A stretch of 64,000 nt of DNA from the sequence record PQ724392.1; one strand, 5' to 3'. This document shows, one piece after another, positions 6,658 to 64,000 of the stretch. The notes beneath the pieces were generated by a model that was not told where the DNA came from, searched no databases, and saw only the letters and a program-made list of their open reading frames with translations. The DNA is from a phage. The first letter of the stretch is position 1, and each line of letters opens with the position of its first letter. The translations under genes were made by a program, and so were the position numbers.

Positions 6658-6665
6658 TATTTATA
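6658..6665 (-). promoter_or_regulatory. late promoter -10 element TATAAATA
   Basis: Exact TATAAATA on gene-sense strand about 30 nt upstream of soc ATG. Confidence 0.5.
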
Positions 6666-8646: not shown

Positions 8647-8814
8647 CATTATACTGTAGGTTTATCGTCTTTATTCTTACGCTTTTTTGATGGGATTTGT
8701 TCAGGGCCTTTATTGACAACTGCCCCGGAAGTGGTACCTGTTGCGATATTAGTTGGGTTTCCACCTGCATCACCGGCAACCATATCTTCATTGATAAAAT
8801 CTTTGAATGTTTTC
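8647..8814 (-). CDS. small Gly-rich protein with CTS-like N-terminus
   Basis: 55-aa frame translated by hand: MKTFKDFINEDMVAGDAGGNP...; below ORF-track size cut-off. Confidence 0.3.
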
Positions 8815-8835
8815 ATAACACCCCCTTTCCGCTAT

Positions 8836-9027
8836 TTATACAATGAAGATAGCTTTATTGCCATTTGCATCAGTCACTTCATAGGTGTCTTCATGATACA
8901 ACGGAATAATCCAGGTAACACCATCATCAGCGATAACATGGATTGCTTCTTGGTCTTGCGACACGATTTCATATTCTTCAAAAATCTGGAAGACCGAAAT
9001 CTTAGAGCCCGTACACATTGCAGTCAT
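8836..9027 (-). CDS. hypothetical protein
   Basis: 63-aa ORF co-oriented. Confidence 0.35.
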   Translation of the reverse strand: MTAMCTGSKISVFQIFEEYEIVSQDQEAIHVIADDGVTWIIPLYHEDTYEVTDANGNKAIFIV

Positions 9028-14298: not shown

Positions 14299-14406
14299 TT
14301 TAGTAAACGTTTCCACGTTTCCAGTTTTCTTCAGCCAAATGCTTATTACGCTTTTCTAATAGCAGCAAACCAATTACTGTTCCAACAATCAGAAGTAATA
14401 ATAGCA
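14299..14406 (-). CDS. small single-TM peptide
   Basis: 35-aa frame (MLLLLLIVGTVIGLLLLEKRNKH...) starting right after the lipoprotein stop. Confidence 0.3.
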
Positions 14407-14910
14407 TCAGTTAATACCTTGGCGTGCTTTCTCTTTAGCTACACATTTATTAATATAGCTCAGACGGTTTTGAGCAGAACGCTGATACATATCGCGATAC
14501 TCATTGGCTTTTGGAGAACCCGTCTCCGCTGCCTGATAAGCTTCTGCACGCATGATGTTTATCTGCATATTGATATATGACATGCAGACCTGTGAAATCT
14601 GGTTAACAGTATCCAGGTCATTTTGGCGCTTGGTTTCTGCTTCCAGTTTAGCAATGATTTCGTCATGCTTCGCAGCTTGTTCGCGTTTGTACTCAATTTC
14701 ACGTTGAGCATATTTCGCGCAGTTATTTCCACATTGATTGTTGTCGCGTTTGTAGATAAGTCCAGTACCACCTTTGAAATCAAAGGAACCATTATGCACC
14801 TGACGGTCTGCAGCAATTCGCGCTTTACCAATCTCATTGGCATTAACAACATCACCCTGGTAAGCACAACCAGATAGCAGCATAACAGCTGCGATAGCTA
14901 ACTTTTTCAT
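14407..14910 (-). CDS. putative lipoprotein
   Basis: Start at MKKLAIAAVMLLSGCAY (signal peptide plus LSGC lipobox); sits where T4 has beta-gt/42. Confidence 0.5.
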   Translation of the reverse strand: MKKLAIAAVMLLSGCAYQGDVVNANEIGKARIAADRQVHNGSFDFKGGTGLIYKRDNNQCGNNCAKYAQREIEYKREQAAKHDEIIAKLEAETKRQNDLDTVNQISQVCMSYINMQINIMRAEAYQAAETGSPKANEYRDMYQRSAQNRLSYINKCVAKEKARQGIN

Positions 14911-15060
14911 TGTATTTTCCTCAATTAAAACATTCATAACGGGCTTGGAGTCCCAAAAATATCCAACCCAAAATTAAAGTTGGAATCATATGCGGAGTCA
15001 TTATTGCCCAATAGATTGACATACTAAAAAATGCAATCAGTACAATAATTGTAATTATCT

Positions 15061-15303
15061 TCATTTGGTTTCCTTGATGATAATTAACTGTGCGTTTGAT
15101 TTACGTTCAGCAACGAGTGCCCAAATAAACGCAATAAACCACCCAACCATTGTCCAACCTAACAGAAGGTTAACAAAGAAGATTCCGCAATTACTTTTGG
15201 TTCCACGCAGTAGCGCGATAATCCACGGTAGAAAATAGGTCAGTGCAGCCAGGAAGAAAGAACCAGCACCAAGAACAACAGTACCTGCAATTAATGTTTC
15301 CAT
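15061..15303 (-). CDS. imm: Imm-like small membrane protein
   Basis: 80 aa, two hydrophobic helices, immediately downstream-adjacent to gene 43 as T4 imm. Confidence 0.5.
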   Translation of the reverse strand: METLIAGTVVLGAGSFFLAALTYFLPWIIALLRGTKSNCGIFFVNLLLGWTMVGWFIAFIWALVAERKSNAQLIIIKETK

Positions 15304-15375
15304 TTTAATATCCTTAAGTTAATCATCAGTAATTGATGGAGTAATCATACGGCAATCCTTTGCCGTTGTAAACAC

Positions 15376-18090
15376 TTAAAAGTCAAACATATCAAAAAGA
15401 GATGCTTTTTTCTCGTAATCAACCTTAGCTGCTTCAGAGAACCCTGTCAATGGCTTAACAAAAGTCTTCTGGAACAGCGTGTTGTAGTCCATCCACTGCA
15501 AGACTTGGTCACGAATTTCAATCGGGAGTTCAATCCCTGATGGCCATGCAATCACGGTTTCGCCAAACGGGTTACCAACTTTAAGAGGAAGCACATACAC
15601 CTTTTCCCCTTCCATGATTTGTGGAACAGTCTTCAGCCCTTTAGTTGCACGCATATATGCAAGCACACCTTTGATATGAGCCGGGCACTTAAATCCAGGG
15701 AAACCGCCCTCATTATATTTCTGGATGTTGTTAACCGATGATACACCCGCGATGGTCATGTAGTTAAGCTCATTAAATTCCTTATTGAATTCCTTGAAGT
15801 ATGTCTGCAGAGATTCTTCACCTTCTTGCAGCATACGGCGGATACATTCTTTCAGAGCTTTCTGACATGCTTTTGGTGTACTCGACTTTTGAGTTTCCAG
15901 GCCCATGATTTTCAGTTTCGGAACAGCATATCGTGTGCCTTCCATATCGTACACGTTCAGAGCATAACGCTTCTTCGCCGTCCAGAATCCACCAACACCT
16001 TTAGAACCAAGTGGAGGACATGCAATCGCTTCACGGTCCATAAACATAAGGTGCTGTTTGTTGTTCATGTATTCAGCCAGCTCACGGAAAGCTTTATCGA
16101 TTGCTGGTTCCAGACGGTCTTTCGCGAACTTGTCCATGAAGTCAACCAGGTGGTTTGTATCGCGGAATTTAGATTCACCACCAACCTTTTTAATCAGGTT
16201 ATCGCACTGGATATAAATGGAGTCAGTATCACCATAGAATACATATGTTTCACCACTTGTACCGCAAACACTATCAAAATATTCGTTAACTTTACGCTCA
16301 ATCCACTGCAATGCAAGTTGTCCGAAAGATGTAATCGCGGTTGCATTTCGCAGGTCAAAGTAACGGAACCAGATATTACCCAGAGCGCCATAACAACTGT
16401 TGATAAGCAGTTTACGGTTAATCTGTGCGGTCATGCCTGCAACTTCTTCCATTTGTGCTTTGTACAACATACCATTCAGAACTGTTTGATTCAGACCATG
16501 CAAGGTTGTTTTCATATTGTCATCAAAGTCATAACGATAATCAACTTCAGGCTCGGTTGTACCAGTTCCTGGATTACGCAGGGCTTCCTTAATCAGTTCA
16601 CCATTACGTTGAGCCGCAAGCATATAACCTTTATGCTCTTTACGCTGATTAAACACCTTGGTGACTTCTGTCGGAATAATACCCGCAACATCTTTAAAAT
16701 ACATCATACCGTTTGGAGCACAACTAAATGTATCAGATGGACGGTCAGCAGTTCCTGCAATGTATTCATACATCGGCGCTGGTGTAAATGACCCGGCAAT
16801 CGTTTCTGGACTAATGTTAATCTGTCGGATGATGCTCGGATACAGAGATGTTAAATCACAGCTCATAACATATTTGTATGCGTTCGGAATCGGTTCCTTA
16901 ACAAATGCACCCGGGAACGATTGACGAACATGCGATTTGGTTTCCGGAATGACTTTATTTTGAGTCTTCAGGCTGTTAAAGATAATCGCATCCCAAGTTT
17001 TGATTGGGCTGAATACAGACTGAATCTGCATTTTTGCGTAATAACCCATTGACTGGCTAAGGTTAATAAACTGACGCTTACGGTCAATCTGTACAACACG
17101 ATAAACATCGATGATGTTATAAGAAATATACCGTTGGTGATTTGATTCGCGCAGTTTAGAAATCGGGCCATCATACGGGAGTTTACCAACACCCAGCTCA
17201 GATTCCGCAACATAATCCAACGAATAAGATGGCTGGTTTGTGAAGCTGAACTTTTTATACAGGTCCAGATAATCCAGAACAGAGATACCCAGAATCTGAA
17301 TGATTTCTTGTTCTTCACCGAATCCGTTGTTAATGACCTTAACTTTTGTACGACGATGTGGACTCAGACGTTTTGCCGTAGCTTCACCAAACACATTTTT
17401 AAGGCGGTTGTAGATATATGGAATATCAAACTTCTCGATGTTCCAACCAGTTAACATAACCGGAGTTTTCTCGTTCCAGAATACCAAATACTGCTGGAGC
17501 ATTTCTTCTTCTGAATCGAAAGCCATATAAACAATTTTTTCCAGGATTTCTTCAGGGACTTCATCGCCGCCATCTTCTTGCAGCTTAGCAGCAATATCAA
17601 TAGACCATTGCTCCACAGTGGCGTATGGTGAGCTCAAAAGGTCAAAGACATAGAATTTATCGTCTACCGAATCATAGTGCGTCAGGGCATCAATAGGGTG
17701 ACGTGCTTCAGACGGCTCAGGGAACCCATCAGGAGATGTCACCTCGATATCGAAGTTAGCCACACGGATTTTACTTGAATCGTATTTGATTTCGTGCGGG
17801 TAACGGTCGGACAAGTATGCGAGTTTAAAGTCATCCATACCCATAGCTTCGAGACCCATTTCATTCATTCGCTTCATCCACTGGGATGCATCACGCATGG
17901 AATCGAATTCTTTTTTCACACAACCTTTATTATAGATGTCTGTATACTTTGCGGCCTGGTCTTCGCGGGCGTGCATAAACAAGCATGGAGCATAAGGGAT
18001 TTCACGAACACGTTCATGACCGTTCTTGTCAATGTATCGTTCGAGCAGATTGTCACCGATTTGTTCGATAGTTAAATAAAATTCTTGCAT
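15376..18090 (-). CDS. 43: DNA polymerase gp43 (family B)
   Basis: 904 aa; YGDTDS polymerase motif; exonuclease FDIE motif; T4 synteny. Confidence 0.95.
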   Translation of the reverse strand: MQEFYLTIEQIGDNLLERYIDKNGHERVREIPYAPCLFMHAREDQAAKYTDIYNKGCVKKEFDSMRDASQWMKRMNEMGLEAMGMDDFKLAYLSDRYPHEIKYDSSKIRVANFDIEVTSPDGFPEPSEARHPIDALTHYDSVDDKFYVFDLLSSPYATVEQWSIDIAAKLQEDGGDEVPEEILEKIVYMAFDSEEEMLQQYLVFWNEKTPVMLTGWNIEKFDIPYIYNRLKNVFGEATAKRLSPHRRTKVKVINNGFGEEQEIIQILGISVLDYLDLYKKFSFTNQPSYSLDYVAESELGVGKLPYDGPISKLRESNHQRYISYNIIDVYRVVQIDRKRQFINLSQSMGYYAKMQIQSVFSPIKTWDAIIFNSLKTQNKVIPETKSHVRQSFPGAFVKEPIPNAYKYVMSCDLTSLYPSIIRQINISPETIAGSFTPAPMYEYIAGTADRPSDTFSCAPNGMMYFKDVAGIIPTEVTKVFNQRKEHKGYMLAAQRNGELIKEALRNPGTGTTEPEVDYRYDFDDNMKTTLHGLNQTVLNGMLYKAQMEEVAGMTAQINRKLLINSCYGALGNIWFRYFDLRNATAITSFGQLALQWIERKVNEYFDSVCGTSGETYVFYGDTDSIYIQCDNLIKKVGGESKFRDTNHLVDFMDKFAKDRLEPAIDKAFRELAEYMNNKQHLMFMDREAIACPPLGSKGVGGFWTAKKRYALNVYDMEGTRYAVPKLKIMGLETQKSSTPKACQKALKECIRRMLQEGEESLQTYFKEFNKEFNELNYMTIAGVSSVNNIQKYNEGGFPGFKCPAHIKGVLAYMRATKGLKTVPQIMEGEKVYVLPLKVGNPFGETVIAWPSGIELPIEIRDQVLQWMDYNTLFQKTFVKPLTGFSEAAKVDYEKKASLFDMFDF

Positions 18091-44604: not shown

Positions 44605-44630
44605 AGCGGAATACTAGTTAGTAACTGTAT

Positions 44631-44906
44631 TTATAATCTTTTAAATTTGAAACAATACATTGCAAATAAATCAGAAAAATGTCTATCAACCCATATTCTT
44701 TGCACTGGACTAGTCACAGTCAGCATATAATGTGATTTTTGTAAATTTATTCCATTTTTATTCGGGCATTCTTTATTAACAGAATGGTACGTGCTTGCTA
44801 CTATTTCAATTTCCCTTTCATATCTCTCGCTATCTGTTTGTGTGGGAATAAATGCAATTCCAGCAATAACAAAAATAGAGATATACGTCCAAACCTTGTA
44901 TACCAT
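44631..44906 (-). CDS. small membrane protein
   Basis: 91 aa with N-terminal hydrophobic helix; between tk and rI. Confidence 0.4.
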   Translation of the reverse strand: MVYKVWTYISIFVIAGIAFIPTQTDSERYEREIEIVASTYHSVNKECPNKNGINLQKSHYMLTVTSPVQRIWVDRHFSDLFAMYCFKFKRL

Positions 44907-48942: not shown

Positions 48943-49231
48943 ATTTTTTCCAGTCAGAAATCATATGAATCTCTTGGTCATACGTCAAGAGACTACGAGT
49001 TATAATGCCCTTACAAGGCCCTGAGATGAACTCGAGGGTGAAGTAAGGAACCTGTTTCATTAATCGGATACTAGGAGCGTGGCATCTAAAACGAGAGCCC
49101 TTAAAGGGCCCTGACATGAATACATATTCTAATGGATAGAAATAAGCATATTCAAAATTTGTAGTAAGGTCCTCTCTTCGGACCTTACGTGAGAAATAGC
49201 AGAACTCAAAAAGTTCTTCATCAGTCATCAT
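48935..49231 (-). CDS. hypothetical protein
   Basis: 98-aa ORF co-oriented. Confidence 0.35.
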   Translation of the reverse strand: MMTDEELFEFCYFSRKVRREDLTTNFEYAYFYPLEYVFMSGPFKGSRFRCHAPSIRLMKQVPYFTLEFISGPCKGIITRSLLTYDQEIHMISDWKKYV

Positions 49232-49755
49232 TGCATTCCTATCACAAAGAACAGTGGCAGAGGTTTAGAACCTTGGCACATAAATTTATTCATCATTGTC
49301 TGATAAGCTTCATAGAACTTATCCATCGCTGGTAGGCGAATAGGCTCTTCAATAATAATCAATAATCGGGTAACAGACAGTCCACGATATTTGTGAAAAT
49401 GATCTTCATCTAAAAATGAACGAACAGTATCATATACAACAAAACCAGGTCGTTCAACATTAAGATGTGGCTGTGCTTTAGAAACCCGCTTTATTATATC
49501 ACAGATTTCTCGTGAGCGATGCGAAGAACTCGACATAACAATTACATCATTACCCTTAGAAACCCAATCCGCAGCGAACTGCGCAATGGCACTTGTTTTA
49601 CCTGTTTGTCTTCCGCCGTCAAGTCTAAGAGTACCAAACTCTTGCATTCTTGAAGCGGGTTCATACCAGGTGTATTGGTCTGAATCTAAGCGTTCAATGG
49701 CGCGTTCAGCGAAGGCGTGCATTAAGGTTAGATAAATTGGAGTTAAAAATTTCAT
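49228..49755 (-). CDS. small P-loop NTPase
   Basis: 175 aa; Walker A GGRQTGKTS and Walker B-like LLIIIEEP. Confidence 0.45.
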   Translation of the reverse strand: MKFLTPIYLTLMHAFAERAIERLDSDQYTWYEPASRMQEFGTLRLDGGRQTGKTSAIAQFAADWVSKGNDVIVMSSSSHRSREICDIIKRVSKAQPHLNVERPGFVVYDTVRSFLDEDHFHKYRGLSVTRLLIIIEEPIRLPAMDKFYEAYQTMMNKFMCQGSKPLPLFFVIGMQ

Positions 49756-49915
49756 AGTTGCCTCTTAGTTGTGGGGCCGTTCCTTGGCACATAATTCATC
49801 CGTGTATCCGTATGTAAACCCCTTACCGCACTTGGGCTCGACCTTATTACAGGTAGGGAAAGGTCCATCACTCAGAGGACGCGACGTTCATGAGGAGAGG
49901 GCCGGCTTGCCTTTA

Positions 49916-50215
49916 TTAGAAAGAACCAGAGCCTTTAATTGTGTTCTGGCGACCTTTATTTTCTAATTCAGAATGGTCGATTTCATATGCTTGTGCTACG
50001 CCAAAGGCCTTTTTAACTTTAGCTAAAGAGCCTTTAGATGTGACAATATTAAAAGTATTGCCTTTAGTAAAATCAACCAAATCCACTTGTACACCCTGTT
50101 TACCGAGGCTTGCTACAATAGCATCAACATATTGTTGGTCTAAATTGCCCTGGACTCCGATTTGAAATGCTTTGGGAGCTTTGGCTTCAGTAATAAATTC
50201 TTGATACGTTTTCAT
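49916..50215 (-). CDS. internal-protein-like gene with capsid targeting sequence
   Basis: Internal start MKTYQEFITEAK matches T4 IP CTS pattern (MKTYQEFIAE); ORF-track frame extends 13 codons upstream. Confidence 0.5.
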   Translation of the reverse strand: MKTYQEFITEAKAPKAFQIGVQGNLDQQYVDAIVASLGKQGVQVDLVDFTKGNTFNIVTSKGSLAKVKKAFGVAQAYEIDHSELENKGRQNTIKGSGSF

Positions 50216-50263
50216 TTTATATTCCATTGTTTGGTTGATAAAATCATTATACAACCTTTTTAG

Positions 50264-50680
50264 TTAAGCGTACACAGCTTTCCCATAGTATTTGTACCAA
50301 GCAGGCTTTTGAGAAATTTTCTCATTCAGTCTAGCTTGACTGATTTCAATTGACCAGATTGATGGTTGATAATCATTCTTCCATTCATCAGGAATATCAG
50401 TTAAATCTTGGGTAGAAATATCTTTTATGTTAAACCCTCGCTTTAAACATTCCGCAATAAGTTCTTGATGCCGGTTTTTAAGGAACAAAAGCTTATCATA
50501 AAAGAAGGTGACATGACCAGTCCCTAAAAGGAAAGATGATGGGATTTTAAAGTCAGAAACCTTTTTACCATTTTGTACATGCTTACGAACAGCACCAAAC
50601 ACGCGAGGAAGTTCACGATATTCAGCCATAAGATGTTGGTCAGCGAGTTCAGATACCAGGGTTAAATTAATGCGAGTCAT
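50264..50680 (-). CDS. denV: endonuclease V (pyrimidine dimer DNA glycosylase)
   Basis: 138 aa; [35 protein letters not shown] ... [11 protein letters not shown] matches remembered T4 DenV nearly throughout. Confidence 0.9.
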
Positions 50681-50735
50681 GTTTGTTCTCCGTAGTTGAT
50701 AGGGTCATTATAACCCTATCATTTGGAGATGTACA
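50681..50735 (-). promoter_or_regulatory. early promoter (-35 ATGTAC, -10 TATAAT)
   Basis: TGTACA-N17-TATAAT then GACCCTATCAACTACGGAGAACAAAC before denV ATG. Confidence 0.45.
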
Positions 50736-51005
50736 TCATTTCTTAGAGTATTGACCCATAAGTTTAGCGATATCACCCAATTTCTGATTAAACAAATAAT
50801 CCACTTCTTTGCCAGATTTATCTACAATTTGCCACTGACCATTTCCTTTGTTGCCAAAGGTCCAATCACCAACTTTAAATGAAGTTCCATTAACTTTTTT
50901 AATAGAAGTAAACTCAAAGCCTTCTTTCTTAGCTAAAAATGCCATGCGGCTTTCATCTGATTCATTTAATACAGATTCAGCCAAAAATTCTTGATACGTT
51001 TTCAT
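50736..51005 (-). CDS. internal-protein-like gene with capsid targeting sequence
   Basis: 89 aa starting MKTYQEFLAESV. Confidence 0.5.
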   Translation of the reverse strand: MKTYQEFLAESVLNESDESRMAFLAKKEGFEFTSIKKVNGTSFKVGDWTFGNKGNGQWQIVDKSGKEVDYLFNQKLGDIAKLMGQYSKK

Positions 51006-51013
51006 ATTTTACC

Positions 51014-51505
51014 TTATTTGTATGCGTCAAAAGTTCCGGTACGGAACGTTTCTATAACTCGTTTGGCTCGGTTCGGAGTCTGGACTTTATACCATCTTGA
51101 GTCCGCCAGTTCCTTGGCAGCCGCTTCCCATGATTTAGCCTTCAGCAATCGCATACCCTTAGGAAAACCAGCAACACCAGCAACACCCATCTGGAATACC
51201 ATATTAATGAGTGCACAACGACGAACTTCATCCAGTACATCATAAACAGGTTTTAAGACAGGATGTCTCAAGATTCCGGCTTTAGCCTTTTCGACCGAAC
51301 GGTTAAACAGTGTTTCGGCTTCGTGCTGGGTTATACGACCATTACAGACACGACCCATGAGCTTATCGAGCTCGGCGCGAGCAACATCTTTAGATGGGTT
51401 CTTAGTTATCAGTTGTCCGATGCCAATGGTCCAATAGCCTTCAGTATCTTTATACAAATCCAACTTACAACCTTCATCTATACGTAACATTTCGAATATA
51501 TTCAT
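51014..51505 (-). CDS. e: lysozyme (endolysin, T4 e)
   Basis: 163 aa; [12 protein letters not shown] ... TPNRAKRVI ... FRTGT.DAYK matches T4 lysozyme including catalytic Glu11/Asp20. Confidence 0.95.
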
Positions 51506-51531
51506 AATACCCCCTTATATAGGGGTATTTA

Positions 51532-51990
51532 TTATCCGAAAATTTGAGTCATTACCTTGTACATCGATTTGCCCATCACATACTGCCATTGACTCGGTTT
51601 AATCAGAGCAAATGCATCGAACTCTGGAACCGAACTACCATCCGGGAAGGTATGATAGGCAGAGCATTTACTATGTCTGAACTGCTCATGCTCGACCGGA
51701 ACCGTGTACAAAAACAGGTGAAGATTTTTGTTATCTGAATAACGGAATTCACCCAGGTCCTTTAAGAATGCCGGGTCGTATTGGGTAAACCCAGTTTCTT
51801 CTTCGGTTTCACGGATAGCCGCTTCAATCGGGGATTCACCAGCTTCAACATGACCCTTGGGGGTGTCCCATTTGTGTGCAGGCATACCTGGTTTACGAGA
51901 ACCAGTCACACGACCCATGAATAACTCTTTATCTTCGGTCATGAAAATAATGCCAGCAGATAATTCTTTCACCTTGTTTTTCTTACTCAT
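51532..51990 (-). CDS. nudE: Nudix hydrolase NudE
   Basis: Nudix box GHVEAGESPIEAAIRETEEETG; adjacent to e as in T4; start uncertain. Confidence 0.75.
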   Translation of the reverse strand: MSKKNKVKELSAGIIFMTEDKELFMGRVTGSRKPGMPAHKWDTPKGHVEAGESPIEAAIRETEEETGFTQYDPAFLKDLGEFRYSDNKNLHLFLYTVPVEHEQFRHSKCSAYHTFPDGSSVPEFDAFALIKPSQWQYVMGKSMYKVMTQIFG

Positions 51991-52219
51991 CGTCACGTTT
52001 CCATGATTGGTTAAAAATATCACTCATTAAAAATTCAAGTCTATTTTCCAATGAAGGGCTTTCACTACTAGAAACTTGAACCATGTAGTCAGAAATAGGT
52101 CGGAACATATCCAAGTCAGTTTCTAAATCATCTTTGATTTTCTCTTCTGGTGTTCCAGTGTCATAGGAATACAGATAAGAATCACATGACTCGGATTTAA
52201 TATAAATTGCAATACTCAT
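51983..52219 (-). CDS. hypothetical protein
   Basis: 78-aa ORF co-oriented. Confidence 0.35.
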   Translation of the reverse strand: MSIAIYIKSESCDSYLYSYDTGTPEEKIKDDLETDLDMFRPISDYMVQVSSSESPSLENRLEFLMSDIFNQSWKRDDE

Positions 52220-60536: not shown

Positions 60537-60560
60537 ACGTTTCTCTTTAGTTGATTTATA

Positions 60561-60588
60561 AAAAAGCCCCAACCTTTCGGAAGGGGCT
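60561..60588 (-). terminator. stem-loop terminator
   Basis: AGCCCC-loop-GGGGCT followed by TTTTTT on gene-sense strand. Confidence 0.5.
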
Positions 60589-60625: not shown

Positions 60626-61009
60626 TTATCCGCGAGCGAATGCCATTGCAGCGCGTTCGTTGGCACGGTCGGTGATGTTCAAGAATTTATCACGAGCGAT
60701 TTCGATTGGAGCGCCAACCCAGTCAGCAGCTCCATTACCCGGAGACTGTTTAGGGCGAACCATATAAGTTGAAACTTTGGAACCGGCTAGTTTGGCACCT
60801 GGCGCCGCGGCATTTTTAACGTCTTTAGCTTTGATGCCAAACCCAGTTACGATACCCCAAGAAACGCCATTAACTGGTTTCTTGAACATAACACGGTCAC
60901 CAATTGAAACACCGGCTTTTTCTGGAGCCACTAAAGAAAATTTACCAGCTTCAGTCAGTACAGATTCGGTGATGGTATTGCGATTTAAAAATTCTGCATA
61001 TGTAAGCAT
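60626..61009 (-). CDS. hypothetical protein with CTS-like N-terminus
   Basis: 127 aa starting MLTYAEFLNR; exact TATAAATA upstream. Confidence 0.45.
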   Translation of the reverse strand: MLTYAEFLNRNTITESVLTEAGKFSLVAPEKAGVSIGDRVMFKKPVNGVSWGIVTGFGIKAKDVKNAAAPGAKLAGSKVSTYMVRPKQSPGNGAADWVGAPIEIARDKFLNITDRANERAAMAFARG

Positions 61010-61038: not shown

Positions 61039-61049
61039 AATATTTATAT

Positions 61050-61240
61050 TCCATAGTACCGGATGCACCATCCGCTCGGATTTCTCATACTACCGGGCGC
61101 ACCGCCCGCTCTGGAAAAACTCCGTAAAAGGGTGCGCCGTTTCAGCTGTGGTAGTAAAGAACCAGAACACAGTAAAACTGTGGGAGGAACTATACTTCAG
61201 GGAACTTCAGTCCGACGACTTACCGGTAGCGACCCGGTTT
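61050..61240 (-). other. structured intergenic element with paired hairpin repeats
   Basis: Two ~24-nt direct repeats each folding into a short hairpin with CAC loop, plus downstream complement of the second; no ORF; adjacent to tRNAs. Strand not determined. Confidence 0.3.
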
Positions 61241-61241
61241 C

Positions 61242-61481
61242 TCATTCAATTGTAATAGCTAATTTGACTTTAACAACCTTATAATTGGAATCAAGGTCAT
61301 TGAATTCCATAAAATTTGTTGCTAATCTGCGAGTCGGGAAACTTAGATATTTATTATGCTCAGGTGGAGCAGTTAATGCAAACCATGGGACTTGTTTATC
61401 ATTTTCATCAAACTCATCAAAGCTATAAACCAGCTCGTTGTTGGTTATATCCATAACTGCATATGATTCACTAATAACCAT
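61242..61481 (-). CDS. hypothetical acidic protein
   Basis: Start moved to MVISESY; the ORF-track N-terminal extension is the reverse complement of tRNA-Arg. Confidence 0.4.
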   Translation of the reverse strand: MVISESYAVMDITNNELVYSFDEFDENDKQVPWFALTAPPEHNKYLSFPTRRLATNFMEFNDLDSNYKVVKVKLAITIE

Positions 61482-63095: not shown

Positions 63096-63154
63096 TTTAT
63101 TCTCCTCAGTAGTTGATGGGATAATTATAATGCAGTTATCCCATCGCGTATACT
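63096..63154 (-). promoter_or_regulatory. early promoter cassette (-35 GTATAC, -10 TATAAT, conserved leader)
   Basis: GTATAC-N18-TATAAT then TATCCCATCAACTACTGAGGAGAATAAA. Confidence 0.5.
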
Positions 63155-63397
63155 TTATTTTAAGTCTTCCAGACGTTTTTTCATCTTGGTGCCGTTCTTA
63201 GCAATCTCGCCTGCATCGGAACAAAGAGCAAGGAGAGCTTTAACTTTACCCTGGTCGCCTTTAAAAGATGATGCATCTACTGAATCAGCAAGTTCTTTGA
63301 TACGTGCAAACAGGCGCTCTGCTTCAGCAAGGGCTTGACCAAGTTTAACTTCCATACCATGAGAAGATTCTGTTATAAATGTTTGATAAGTTTTCAT
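63155..63397 (-). CDS. internal-protein-like gene with capsid targeting sequence
   Basis: 80 aa starting MKTYQTFITES. Confidence 0.5.
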   Translation of the reverse strand: MKTYQTFITESSHGMEVKLGQALAEAERLFARIKELADSVDASSFKGDQGKVKALLALCSDAGEIAKNGTKMKKRLEDLK

Positions 63398-63413
63398 GTT
63401 GTCTCCAAGCCAT

Positions 63414-63436
63414 AAAAAGGGGATAATTATCCCCTT
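63414..63436 (-). terminator. palindromic stem-loop terminator
   Basis: GGGGATAATTATCCCC followed by TTTTT on gene-sense strand. Confidence 0.5.
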
Positions 63437-63442
63437 GTATTA

Positions 63443-63742
63443 TTACATCTTACTACCACGGATTACACCATAAGCGGCGAAGTCGTCAGTGATATTTTTA
63501 GGGGTGTTCTTACCAGTTTCAATGAAGGCAATGCTTGATTTCTGACTAAAAGAGGTAATTTTGTTATAGTTAGAGTCAAGGAAGGTATAACCATTTTTAC
63601 GCAACTGGTCAAAGTCTTCAGCGTCGCCTTTACCTTTGAAGTCAACCCATTTGTAGGTGTTTTTCTTCTGAAGGCCAAGAGGCCAGGTTTTTGCTTCCGC
63701 CAGGTAATTGTTTTCTACCAAAAATTCATGAAAAGTTTGCAT
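63443..63742 (-). CDS. internal-protein-like gene with capsid targeting sequence
   Basis: 99 aa starting MQTFHEFLVEN. Confidence 0.45.
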   Translation of the reverse strand: MQTFHEFLVENNYLAEAKTWPLGLQKKNTYKWVDFKGKGDAEDFDQLRKNGYTFLDSNYNKITSFSQKSSIAFIETGKNTPKNITDDFAAYGVIRGSKM

Positions 63743-63750
63743 TTGAAATC

Positions 63751-63948
63751 CTATTTAAGATAAATTGCATATTTTTTATAACCAGCTGTCTCATGACGGA
63801 GACCCTTGTCATTGGCAAAACGCTCAATGTTATTAATTTGGTTCTGGTCAAGTTCTGAAATGTCAAACGCGAAAAAGTTGCGTTTGTTGCCAATTGTTAT
63901 ATGGTCAGTTAAGTCAATGCTATACAGGTGATTGATATTGTCAATCAT
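63751..63948 (-). CDS. hypothetical protein
   Basis: 65-aa ORF co-oriented. Confidence 0.3.
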   Translation of the reverse strand: MIDNINHLYSIDLTDHITIGNKRNFFAFDISELDQNQINNIERFANDKGLRHETAGYKKYAIYLK

Positions 63949-64000
63949 AGCTTTGACTGCTTTACTAATTTTTACTTCTTCATTCAGTTGTGACTCGTTG

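Follow-up and report, generated by a model that had tools for sequence, protein, structure and literature searches.

Internal protein leaders in a VR7-like T4-type phage: four annotated genes, a candidate new family and a gp23-junction-like gene 61.1

We examined a 64,000-nucleotide stretch of phage DNA (sequence record PQ724392.1, here referred to as the window), in which six ORFs on the minus strand open with N-termini that resemble the capsid targeting sequence (CTS) of the T4 internal proteins (IPs or Ips). By their sequence matches, four of the six genes belong to already annotated internal head or internal virion protein families, the gene at 60626-61009 is a plausible candidate for a new Ip family, and the sixth, gene 61.1, is a conserved mini-paralogue of the maturation junction and N-fist of gp23 and not a variable effector cassette. 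All six ORFs were found with the N-termini quoted in the first-pass annotation; five of its six pairs of coordinates were exact, while the sixth ORF lies at 8649..8816 and not at 8647..8814. Its reading of these genes as internal protein genes was borne out for four of them by PHROG names, annotations and loci, is plausible for 60626-61009, and fell short for 8649-8816, where it is incomplete. The ORFs, together with a further gene cut by the window edge, are as follows, slashes marking putative processing sites.

49916..50215, minus strand: Ip7-family gene downstream of denV, encoding the same protein as VR7 ip7; leader MKTYQEFITE/A
50736..51005, minus strand: internal protein gene between e (lysozyme) and denV; leader MKTYQEFLAE/S
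63155..63397, minus strand: Ip5-like gene at the trna.4-57B (ipI) locus; leader MKTYQTFITE/S
63443..63742, minus strand: internal protein gene of the VR7 ORF154c / RB69 ORF125c type; leader MQTFHEFLVE/N
63751..64000, minus strand: ip9, the first 8 codons of which (MKTFNEFF in relatives) are removed by the window edge
60626..61009, minus strand: candidate internal protein gene, 127 aa; leader MLTYAEFLNRNTITE/SVLTE/A
8649..8816, minus strand: gene 61.1, 55 aa, phrog_1823, function unknown; MKTFKDFINE/DMVAGDAGGNPTNIATGTTSGAVV...

The first ten residues of IPIII are sufficient for packaging into T4, including that of foreign proteins, with residues 4 and 7 acting in targeting and residues 8 and 10 in processing, so that Asp10 blocks processing and leaves targeting intact (PMC9026906). 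An IP propeptide has 10-19 residues and is removed by the prohead protease gp21, which cuts after L/I-x-E; each head contains about 360 copies of every IP (PMC9026906). Ips have been described as diverse defence proteins with only the CTS in common (PMC3012670). As cited in PMC12373910, Repoila et al. 1994 detected many T-even ip genes via the signal sequence, at least ten Ips being known, and the named Ip families of T-even, RB and JS98/VR7-type phages are known from the same work and from GenBank annotations. Silas et al. 2025 showed that T4 Ip1, Ip2 and Ip3 act as inhibitors of three distinct GmrSD type IV restriction enzymes, one each, while ten other ip genes gave no inhibition of the GmrSD variants tried (PMC12373910); IPI* inhibits the GmrSD of E. 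coli CT596. The injected anti-restriction role that had been proposed for the window genes is an idea already in print (PMC3012670, PMC12373910). Since ip genes had already been found by their leader and the targets of Ip1-3 had been published, the core observation and its interpretation are already known, leader-based ip finding being established practice. In annotated records, two of the six leader-tagged candidates are not labelled as internal proteins. The window thus supplies candidates to a leader-catalogue approach already used in the field and no new concept; what it adds is a gene that may found a new Ip family and a gp23-junction paralogue still to be explained.

Aligned from end to end, the stretch 49500-52000 showed 98% identity to the Escherichia phages TH55 and UPEC07, and 94-97% identity to VR7, SP18 and other members of the genus Gaprivervirus, which places the source of the window as a VR7-like T4-type phage of this genus (Tevenvirinae). 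The gene order is of T4 type (dda, primase 61, replication genes, denV, lysozyme e, two tRNAs and the ipI locus), with nearly all genes coded on the minus strand and with the right end of the window falling in the ipI locus, just short of 57B. Gene 42 and beta-gt are absent between uvsX and gene 43. Gapriverviruses have no dCMP hydroxymethylase (hmC synthase), but they have kept dCTPase, denB and alc, which implies a DNA modification of unidentified type (PMC8056088, PMC12115623). The genes of the gp21 protease and of the core proteins gp22, gp67 and gp68 lie outside the window, and VR7, a close relative, has all of them.

The pattern M[KQL]T[YF]x[ETD]F[ILV]x[ER] was detected at six ORF starts in the window, compared with a mean of 0.0 in 100 dinucleotide-preserving shuffles, and a looser leader pattern was likewise observed six times versus a mean of 0.15; a relaxed leader scan of every frame of the window gave no extra N-terminal copies. 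An aromatic residue 4 and Phe7, the targeting determinants described for T4 (PMC9026906), are present in all six ORFs, and the gp21 motif (L/I)-x-E occupies residues 8-10 in five of them and comes later in the 60626-61009 protein. The predicted mature parts are small and basic (4.6-12 kDa, pI 8.8-10). That the bodies behind the tag are unrelated, as had been claimed, agrees with an all-against-all BLASTP of the sequences without their leaders, in which the best match had E=0.3.

The assumption that T4 IPI, IPII and IPIII all share the start MKTYQEFIAE was correct for two of the three, since IPII and IPIII carry it in the T4 genome and IPI starts with MKTFKEFTSTTTPVSTITE. The propeptide of T4 IPI, MKTFKEFTSTTTPVSTITE/A, is 19 residues long and without Glu10, and has ITE at 17-19 (T4 genome; PMC9026906).

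The conserved 5′ ends might also serve at the DNA level, as signals for recombination or translation in cassette shuffling, with no protein tag involved. The first 21 nt are indeed identical in the genes flanking denV, and shuffling through conserved regulatory modules has been described for the hyperplastic regions of T4-like phages (PMC4122927); in the remaining leaders, however, synonymous sites differ while the amino acids are kept, and in T4 the first 10 residues alone package foreign proteins (PMC9026906). As the leaders are encoded by differing synonymous codons, conservation acts on the protein and not on the DNA, and we regard the purely DNA-level explanation as highly improbable. Promoter-stem-loop modules have been proposed as mediators of shuffling in these hyperplastic regions (PMC4122927), and the following elements were identified around the cassettes of the window, the first two of which resemble such modules (PeSL-like) in sequence.

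50681..50735, minus strand: stem-loop with TATAAT inside, then CATCAACTAC..GAG, between the ip gene and denV
63096-63154: similar TATAAT stem-loop module, after the Ip5-like gene
63417..63436, minus strand: hairpin AAGGGGATAATTATCCCCTT with a T run, separating two cassettes of the ipI locus

The exact late promoter TATAAATA occurs in only four copies on the coding strand of the window, and these are located 24-39 nt 5′ of the starts of soc, 61.1, an rI-like gene and 60626-61009. No exact copy was found directly upstream of the four canonical ip genes; late-promoter sites with one mismatch, at 1.1 per kb, are too common for interpretation.

Among the four canonical genes, the product of 49916-50215 matched phrog_2667 ('internal head protein') with E=8e-43, and its leader is invariant in Ip7 homologues down to 46% identity. 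The AF2 model of Ip7 (pLDDT 74) has a disordered leader and a compact beta-alpha-beta-beta-alpha-beta-alpha fold with a ferredoxin-like core, an arrangement which, as modelled, fits a detachable tag. The only significant match of this model in BFVD was the 'Ip7 protein' of phage MX01, and Foldseek against PDB gave only generic ferredoxin/ACT-like matches (E>=3e-3) and no resemblance to a known inhibitor; as the fold is a generic ferredoxin/ACT-like sandwich, no functional inference can be drawn from it. A literature search on Ip7, Ip10 and VR7 returned only unrelated papers, and one for virion proteomics of VR7-like phages found none.

The 50736-51005 gene starts 8 nt past the stop codon of e, and its product matched phrog_8765 ('internal virion protein', E=5e-37), which is also its RefSeq name. 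The gene was found in 43 records of T4-like Enterobacterales phages, and most of the listed records with annotation show it next to the lysozyme gene or overlapping with it. The 63155-63397 protein matched phrog_3499 ('internal head protein', E=2e-41); its counterpart CDS in ECML-359 is labelled ip5, and identical copies annotated as internal head protein are present in EAWsc9, P8 and UPEC07. The 63443-63742 gene corresponds to VR7 ORF154c, for which the RefSeq name is 'internal head protein', and an identical copy in EAWsc9 is mislabelled as a homing endonuclease. The full 63443-63742 protein also grouped with phrog_2667 (E=6e-21). Kinship of its body with Ip7, as this grouping would have it, was rejected, hhalign against the Ip7 family with the leader removed giving a probability of 0.6%. 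The translated ip9 frame equals the Ip9 of VR7, EAWsc9 and P8 from residue 9 on.

These four complete genes and the truncated ip9, which are members of the named T-even, RB and JS98/VR7-type families Ip5, Ip6, Ip7, Ip9 and Ip10, occupy the two classical Ip loci (vs.8-denV-e and trna.4-57B), corresponding to the T4 sites of ipII/ipIII and of ipI. Thus, the 50736-51005 gene shares the e-denV locus with T4 IPII/IPIII, and the site of the 63155-64000 cassettes equals the ipI locus (trna.4-57B) of T4 IPI. VR7 carries ip7, ORF127c and ip10 before denV, and ip6, 153c, 154c, ip9 and 156c at the ipI locus. The set of cassettes varies among genomes of 95-98% identity, with VR7, UPEC07, EAWsc9, P8 and the window all differing from each other, and such differences between near-identical phages are compatible with an arms race.

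The likeness to T4 IPII and IPIII lies in a near-identical 10-residue leader (aromatic 4, Phe7, I/L8, Glu10, then Ala/Ser) and in a small basic mature protein, whereas the bodies are unrelated, fall in other PHROGs and have no BLASTP similarity. The T4 ip1-3 genes belong to phrog_4363, 7857 and 5341 and the window genes to phrog_2667, 8765 and 3499, so that no homology, by this difference in PHROGs, connects the window Ip bodies with T4 Ip1, Ip2 or Ip3. Sequence searches of Pfam and NCBIfam, and one of PDB that covered four of the six proteins, yielded nothing above threshold other than the match of 61.1 to gp23. As the bodies fall outside the T4 Ip1-3 families, a GmrSD target for the window proteins is an analogy only; the window phage also differs from T4 in being without the hmC pathway, the source of the glucosylated product that GmrSD enzymes attack.

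By homology with T4, it is probable that the window Ip genes encode injected internal proteins of T4 type, which most likely have host nucleases as targets. On T4 homology, the leader (10 residues with aromatic 4 and Phe7) would bind the protein to the scaffolding core during prohead assembly, gp21 would cut after Glu10 of (I/L)-x-E, and the mature protein of 7-10 kDa would remain with the packaged DNA. It would then be injected together with this DNA and, most likely, would inactivate a host nuclease, as T4 Ip1-3 do with GmrSDs. Perhaps the tagged proteins are instead mainly structural or DNA-condensing, contributing to assembly and charge neutralisation and having no specific anti-defence target. 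Every mature part is basic, head assembly is slowed in T4 mutants of IPIII and low salt allows IPs to bind DNA (PMC9026906), and GmrSD inhibition was not seen with ten further ip genes (PMC12373910), all of which would suit such a role. On the other hand, T4 can do without its IPs on laboratory strains (PMC9026906), specific nuclease targets are now known for all three of them (PMC12373910), and a generic structural role would predict neither unrelated bodies nor cassette turnover in near-identical phages; we therefore consider this explanation improbable. Host immunity encounters the injected internal proteins before any other phage molecule and, in a phage whose DNA is by implication modified, the genes that carry the leader make a short list of candidate nuclease inhibitors.

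The 60626-61009 gene lies downstream of tRNA-Arg and tRNA-Met and outside both Ip loci. Its product has FLNR at residues 7-10, with Arg10 and no Glu10, followed by ITE at 13-15 and LTE at 18-20, and the predicted mature part has a pI of 10. No match was found for this protein in PHROG, Pfam, NCBIfam or PDB. The gene was identified in 16 phage records, all at an identity of at least 99%, where it is either 'hypothetical' or unannotated; those carriers that have a taxonomy on record belong to Gaprivervirus, plus one unclassified Yersinia phage, and VR7 is without the gene. An indexed search of 5.8 billion proteins returned one cluster only, and exhaustive phmmer (1.84 billion representatives) gave two remote homologues with 38-41% identity across the alignment, here referred to as P0024 and P0025. 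The first starts with MYTFKEFLVE/SELDLITE/AKK and its gene follows a tRNA at a distance of 186 nt, on a contig that also encodes T4-type Pfam families; the second starts with MKSFKEFMLSE/K and comes from a contig of only 1.8 kb. As three divergent bodies all keep a CTS-like leader, we argue that the leader is functional. The gene is flanked by two elements.

61041..61048, minus strand: exact T4 late promoter TATAAATA, 39 nt upstream of the 60626-61009 start
60560..60588, minus strand: terminator-like hairpin AGCCCC...GGGGCT with a T run, after 60626-61009, as read from the sequence

By this promoter and this putative terminator, 60626-61009 is a self-contained late transcription unit. Rfam detected the two tRNAs and nothing else upstream of the gene, the RNA fold of 61040-61250 was without significance (z-score -1.0), and the AF2 model of the protein from a single sequence was unusable (pLDDT 36). 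With T4 IPI the protein has in common Y/F4, F7 and the absence of Glu10, followed by ITE, whereas the two bodies are without homology and 60626-61009 sits at a third locus with its own late promoter and terminator. The protein would probably act like the other Ips, with a longer propeptide of IPI type cut at ITE15 or LTE20 and with late expression from its own promoter.

The leader-like start of 60626-61009 could also be a chance resemblance in an unpackaged late accessory protein of an ordinary kind, and the Arg in place of Glu at position 10, the location away from both Ip loci and the lack of any PHROG match, even of the leader-only kind that other Ips give, would point in that direction. 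Both remote homologues, however, open with M-x-[TS]-F-K-E-F and then have (I/L)-x-E, T4 IPI is likewise without Glu10 and is cut at ITE19, the protein is basic, and the exact late promoter has a 7/8 counterpart in the P0024 contig, also at -39. We thus find a chance resemblance unlikely, and it is rather likely, judging from the leaders and promoters compared here, that 60626-61009 represents a new Ip family.

Gene 61.1 was found in 1453 phage records and is among the conserved T4-superfamily ORFs lacking a function (PMC1524935); our literature search found no published function for it. When 61.1 was compared with PDB by phmmer, only residues 58-96 of T4 gp23 scored below E=1e-3 (E=8.9e-5), with mature gp23* chains following at E=0.011, and a profile of the 61.1 family (7 sequences) matched gp23 58-102 with E=7.7e-6, gp23 and gp23* being the only matches. 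In the profile alignment, E10 of 61.1 stands opposite the E65/A66 cleavage site of gp23 (FLTE65/A66), and the residues past Glu10 correspond to the first part of mature gp23*, the N-fist, which in gp23 contacts four subunits and is part of the Soc site (PMC9958956). The junction motif, (L/I/V)-x-E and then [DE]M.AGD, is kept in all seven 61.1 homologues despite indels, and a long form of 154-159 aa with the junction internal was detected in Aeromonas, Acinetobacter and Vibrio phages. Unlike gp23, 61.1 has no HK97-fold capsid body, being only 55 aa long and ending in a Lys-rich tail.

The pattern [YFW]xxF[ILV]xE has a single occurrence in seven VR7 head proteins, exactly at the gp23 junction, and it agrees with the residues that determine targeting and processing in the Ip leader. 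We hypothesise that the tag of the Ips is a mimic of this junction. Gene 61.1 would share the logic of the leader by being a copy of the cleavage junction of gp23, and its product is probably a gp21 substrate in the prohead and not a variable effector. Gene 61.1 lies outside both Ip loci and has a late promoter of its own, as follows.

8833..8840, minus strand: exact late promoter TATAAATA, 24 nt upstream of 61.1

Whether 61.1 is a free-standing paralogue of the gp23 junction and N-fist that serves head assembly or maturation, and not an injected effector, is in our view an evenly balanced question; in such a role it could be a gp21 substrate, a competitor or a filler of the N-fist site. This role would be in line with homology below E=1e-3 to gp23 58-102 alone and with the cleavage sites aligned, with a junction motif conserved in 7/7 homologues and found internally in the long forms, with the four-subunit contact and Soc site role of the gp23 N-fist (PMC9958956), with the exact late promoter that 61.1 has in common with soc, and with the conservation of 61.1, but not of Ip cassettes, over the T4 superfamily (PMC1524935). 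Against it, the late promoter is exact only in the lineage of the window (relatives have 7/8 at a similar position and T4 has no exact copy), the gene adjoins the primase gene within the early replication cluster, and a non-exhaustive search of the T4 capsid literature found no report of extra N-fist-like density.

Taken jointly, the sequences would allow a tentative and somewhat doubtful reading in which 60626-61009 founds a tRNA-proximal late family of IPI type, 61.1 is a copy of the gp23 junction that is cut by gp21, and the CTS mimics this junction; that gp61.1 would act in the head or be carried by it, as this reading includes, we hold to be possible and no likelier than the rest of it. 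If functional, the relation between 61.1 and gp23 would give a role to one of the few functionless conserved ORFs of the T4 superfamily and would explain the form of the targeting tag. The first seven residues of T4 gp61.1 and T4 IPI are alike (MKTFKEF), and the window copy of 61.1 reads MKTFKDF.

The coding strand of the window has four exact copies of the T4 late promoter, TATAAATA, and the opposite strand has none; a start codon was found 24-39 nt downstream of every copy. The genes that follow these copies are soc, gene 61.1, an rI-like gene and the candidate internal protein gene at 60626-61009. The features concerned are the following:

6658-6665, 8833-8840, 44628-44635 and 61041-61048, minus strand: exact late promoters
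8649-8816, minus strand: gene 61.1 (55 aa), a mini-paralogue of gp23, the major capsid protein
61051-61110, minus strand: GC-rich hairpin in two tandem imperfect copies (GCGGGCGGTGCGCCCGGTAGTATGAG and GCGGATGGTGCATCCGGTACTATGGA)
L016 1734-2602: 202 aa relative of the 60626-61009 protein, on a metagenomic T4-like contig

The part of gp23 that gene 61.1 resembles is the surroundings of the maturation cleavage site (the propeptide end and the N-fist). In distant T4-like phages, the 61.1 version is 154-159 aa long and the junction is internal.

The tandem hairpins immediately precede the 60626-61009 gene's late promoter; they had no Rfam match, and the predicted fold of the wider region around them was not significant. 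The L016 relative of the encoded protein carries a canonical leader (MYTFKEFLVE) and an additional N-terminal domain of ~90 aa, and its gene is preceded by GATAAATA at -39 and by a tRNA-Gly 186 nt upstream.

Two similar stem-loop modules and a truncated gene were identified beside the other internal protein (ip) genes:

50681-50735 and 63096-63154, minus strand: stem-loop modules
63751-64000, minus strand: ip9, cut by the window end

Each module has a TATAAT inside the stem-loop, followed by CATCAACTAC(G/T)GAG, with an ip cassette immediately upstream and denV or trna.4, respectively, downstream. In this both are similar to PeSLs, the shuffling elements known from T4-like phages. As relatives have one further leader-bearing gene (MNIKTYNEFLAES, VR7 ORF156c) between ip9 and 57B, the locus has more tagged genes than the window displays.

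Between uvsX and DNA polymerase 43 (~14400-15376, minus strand), both gene 42 (dCMP hydroxymethylase) and a beta-glucosyltransferase gene are absent; the interval instead holds a lipoprotein-like ORF (14407-14937), 42.1 and imm. Published comparisons suggested a non-canonical base in Gapriverviruses (PMC8056088, PMC12115623).

Public annotations of the region (49228-49755, minus strand; L001 and L003, records of relatives) are unreliable. In UPEC07, vs.8, a P-loop protein with no leader, is labelled 'IpIII internal head protein'; the 63443-63742 internal protein is called a 'homing endonuclease' in EAWsc9, and the 60626-61009 gene was left without annotation in ECML-359.
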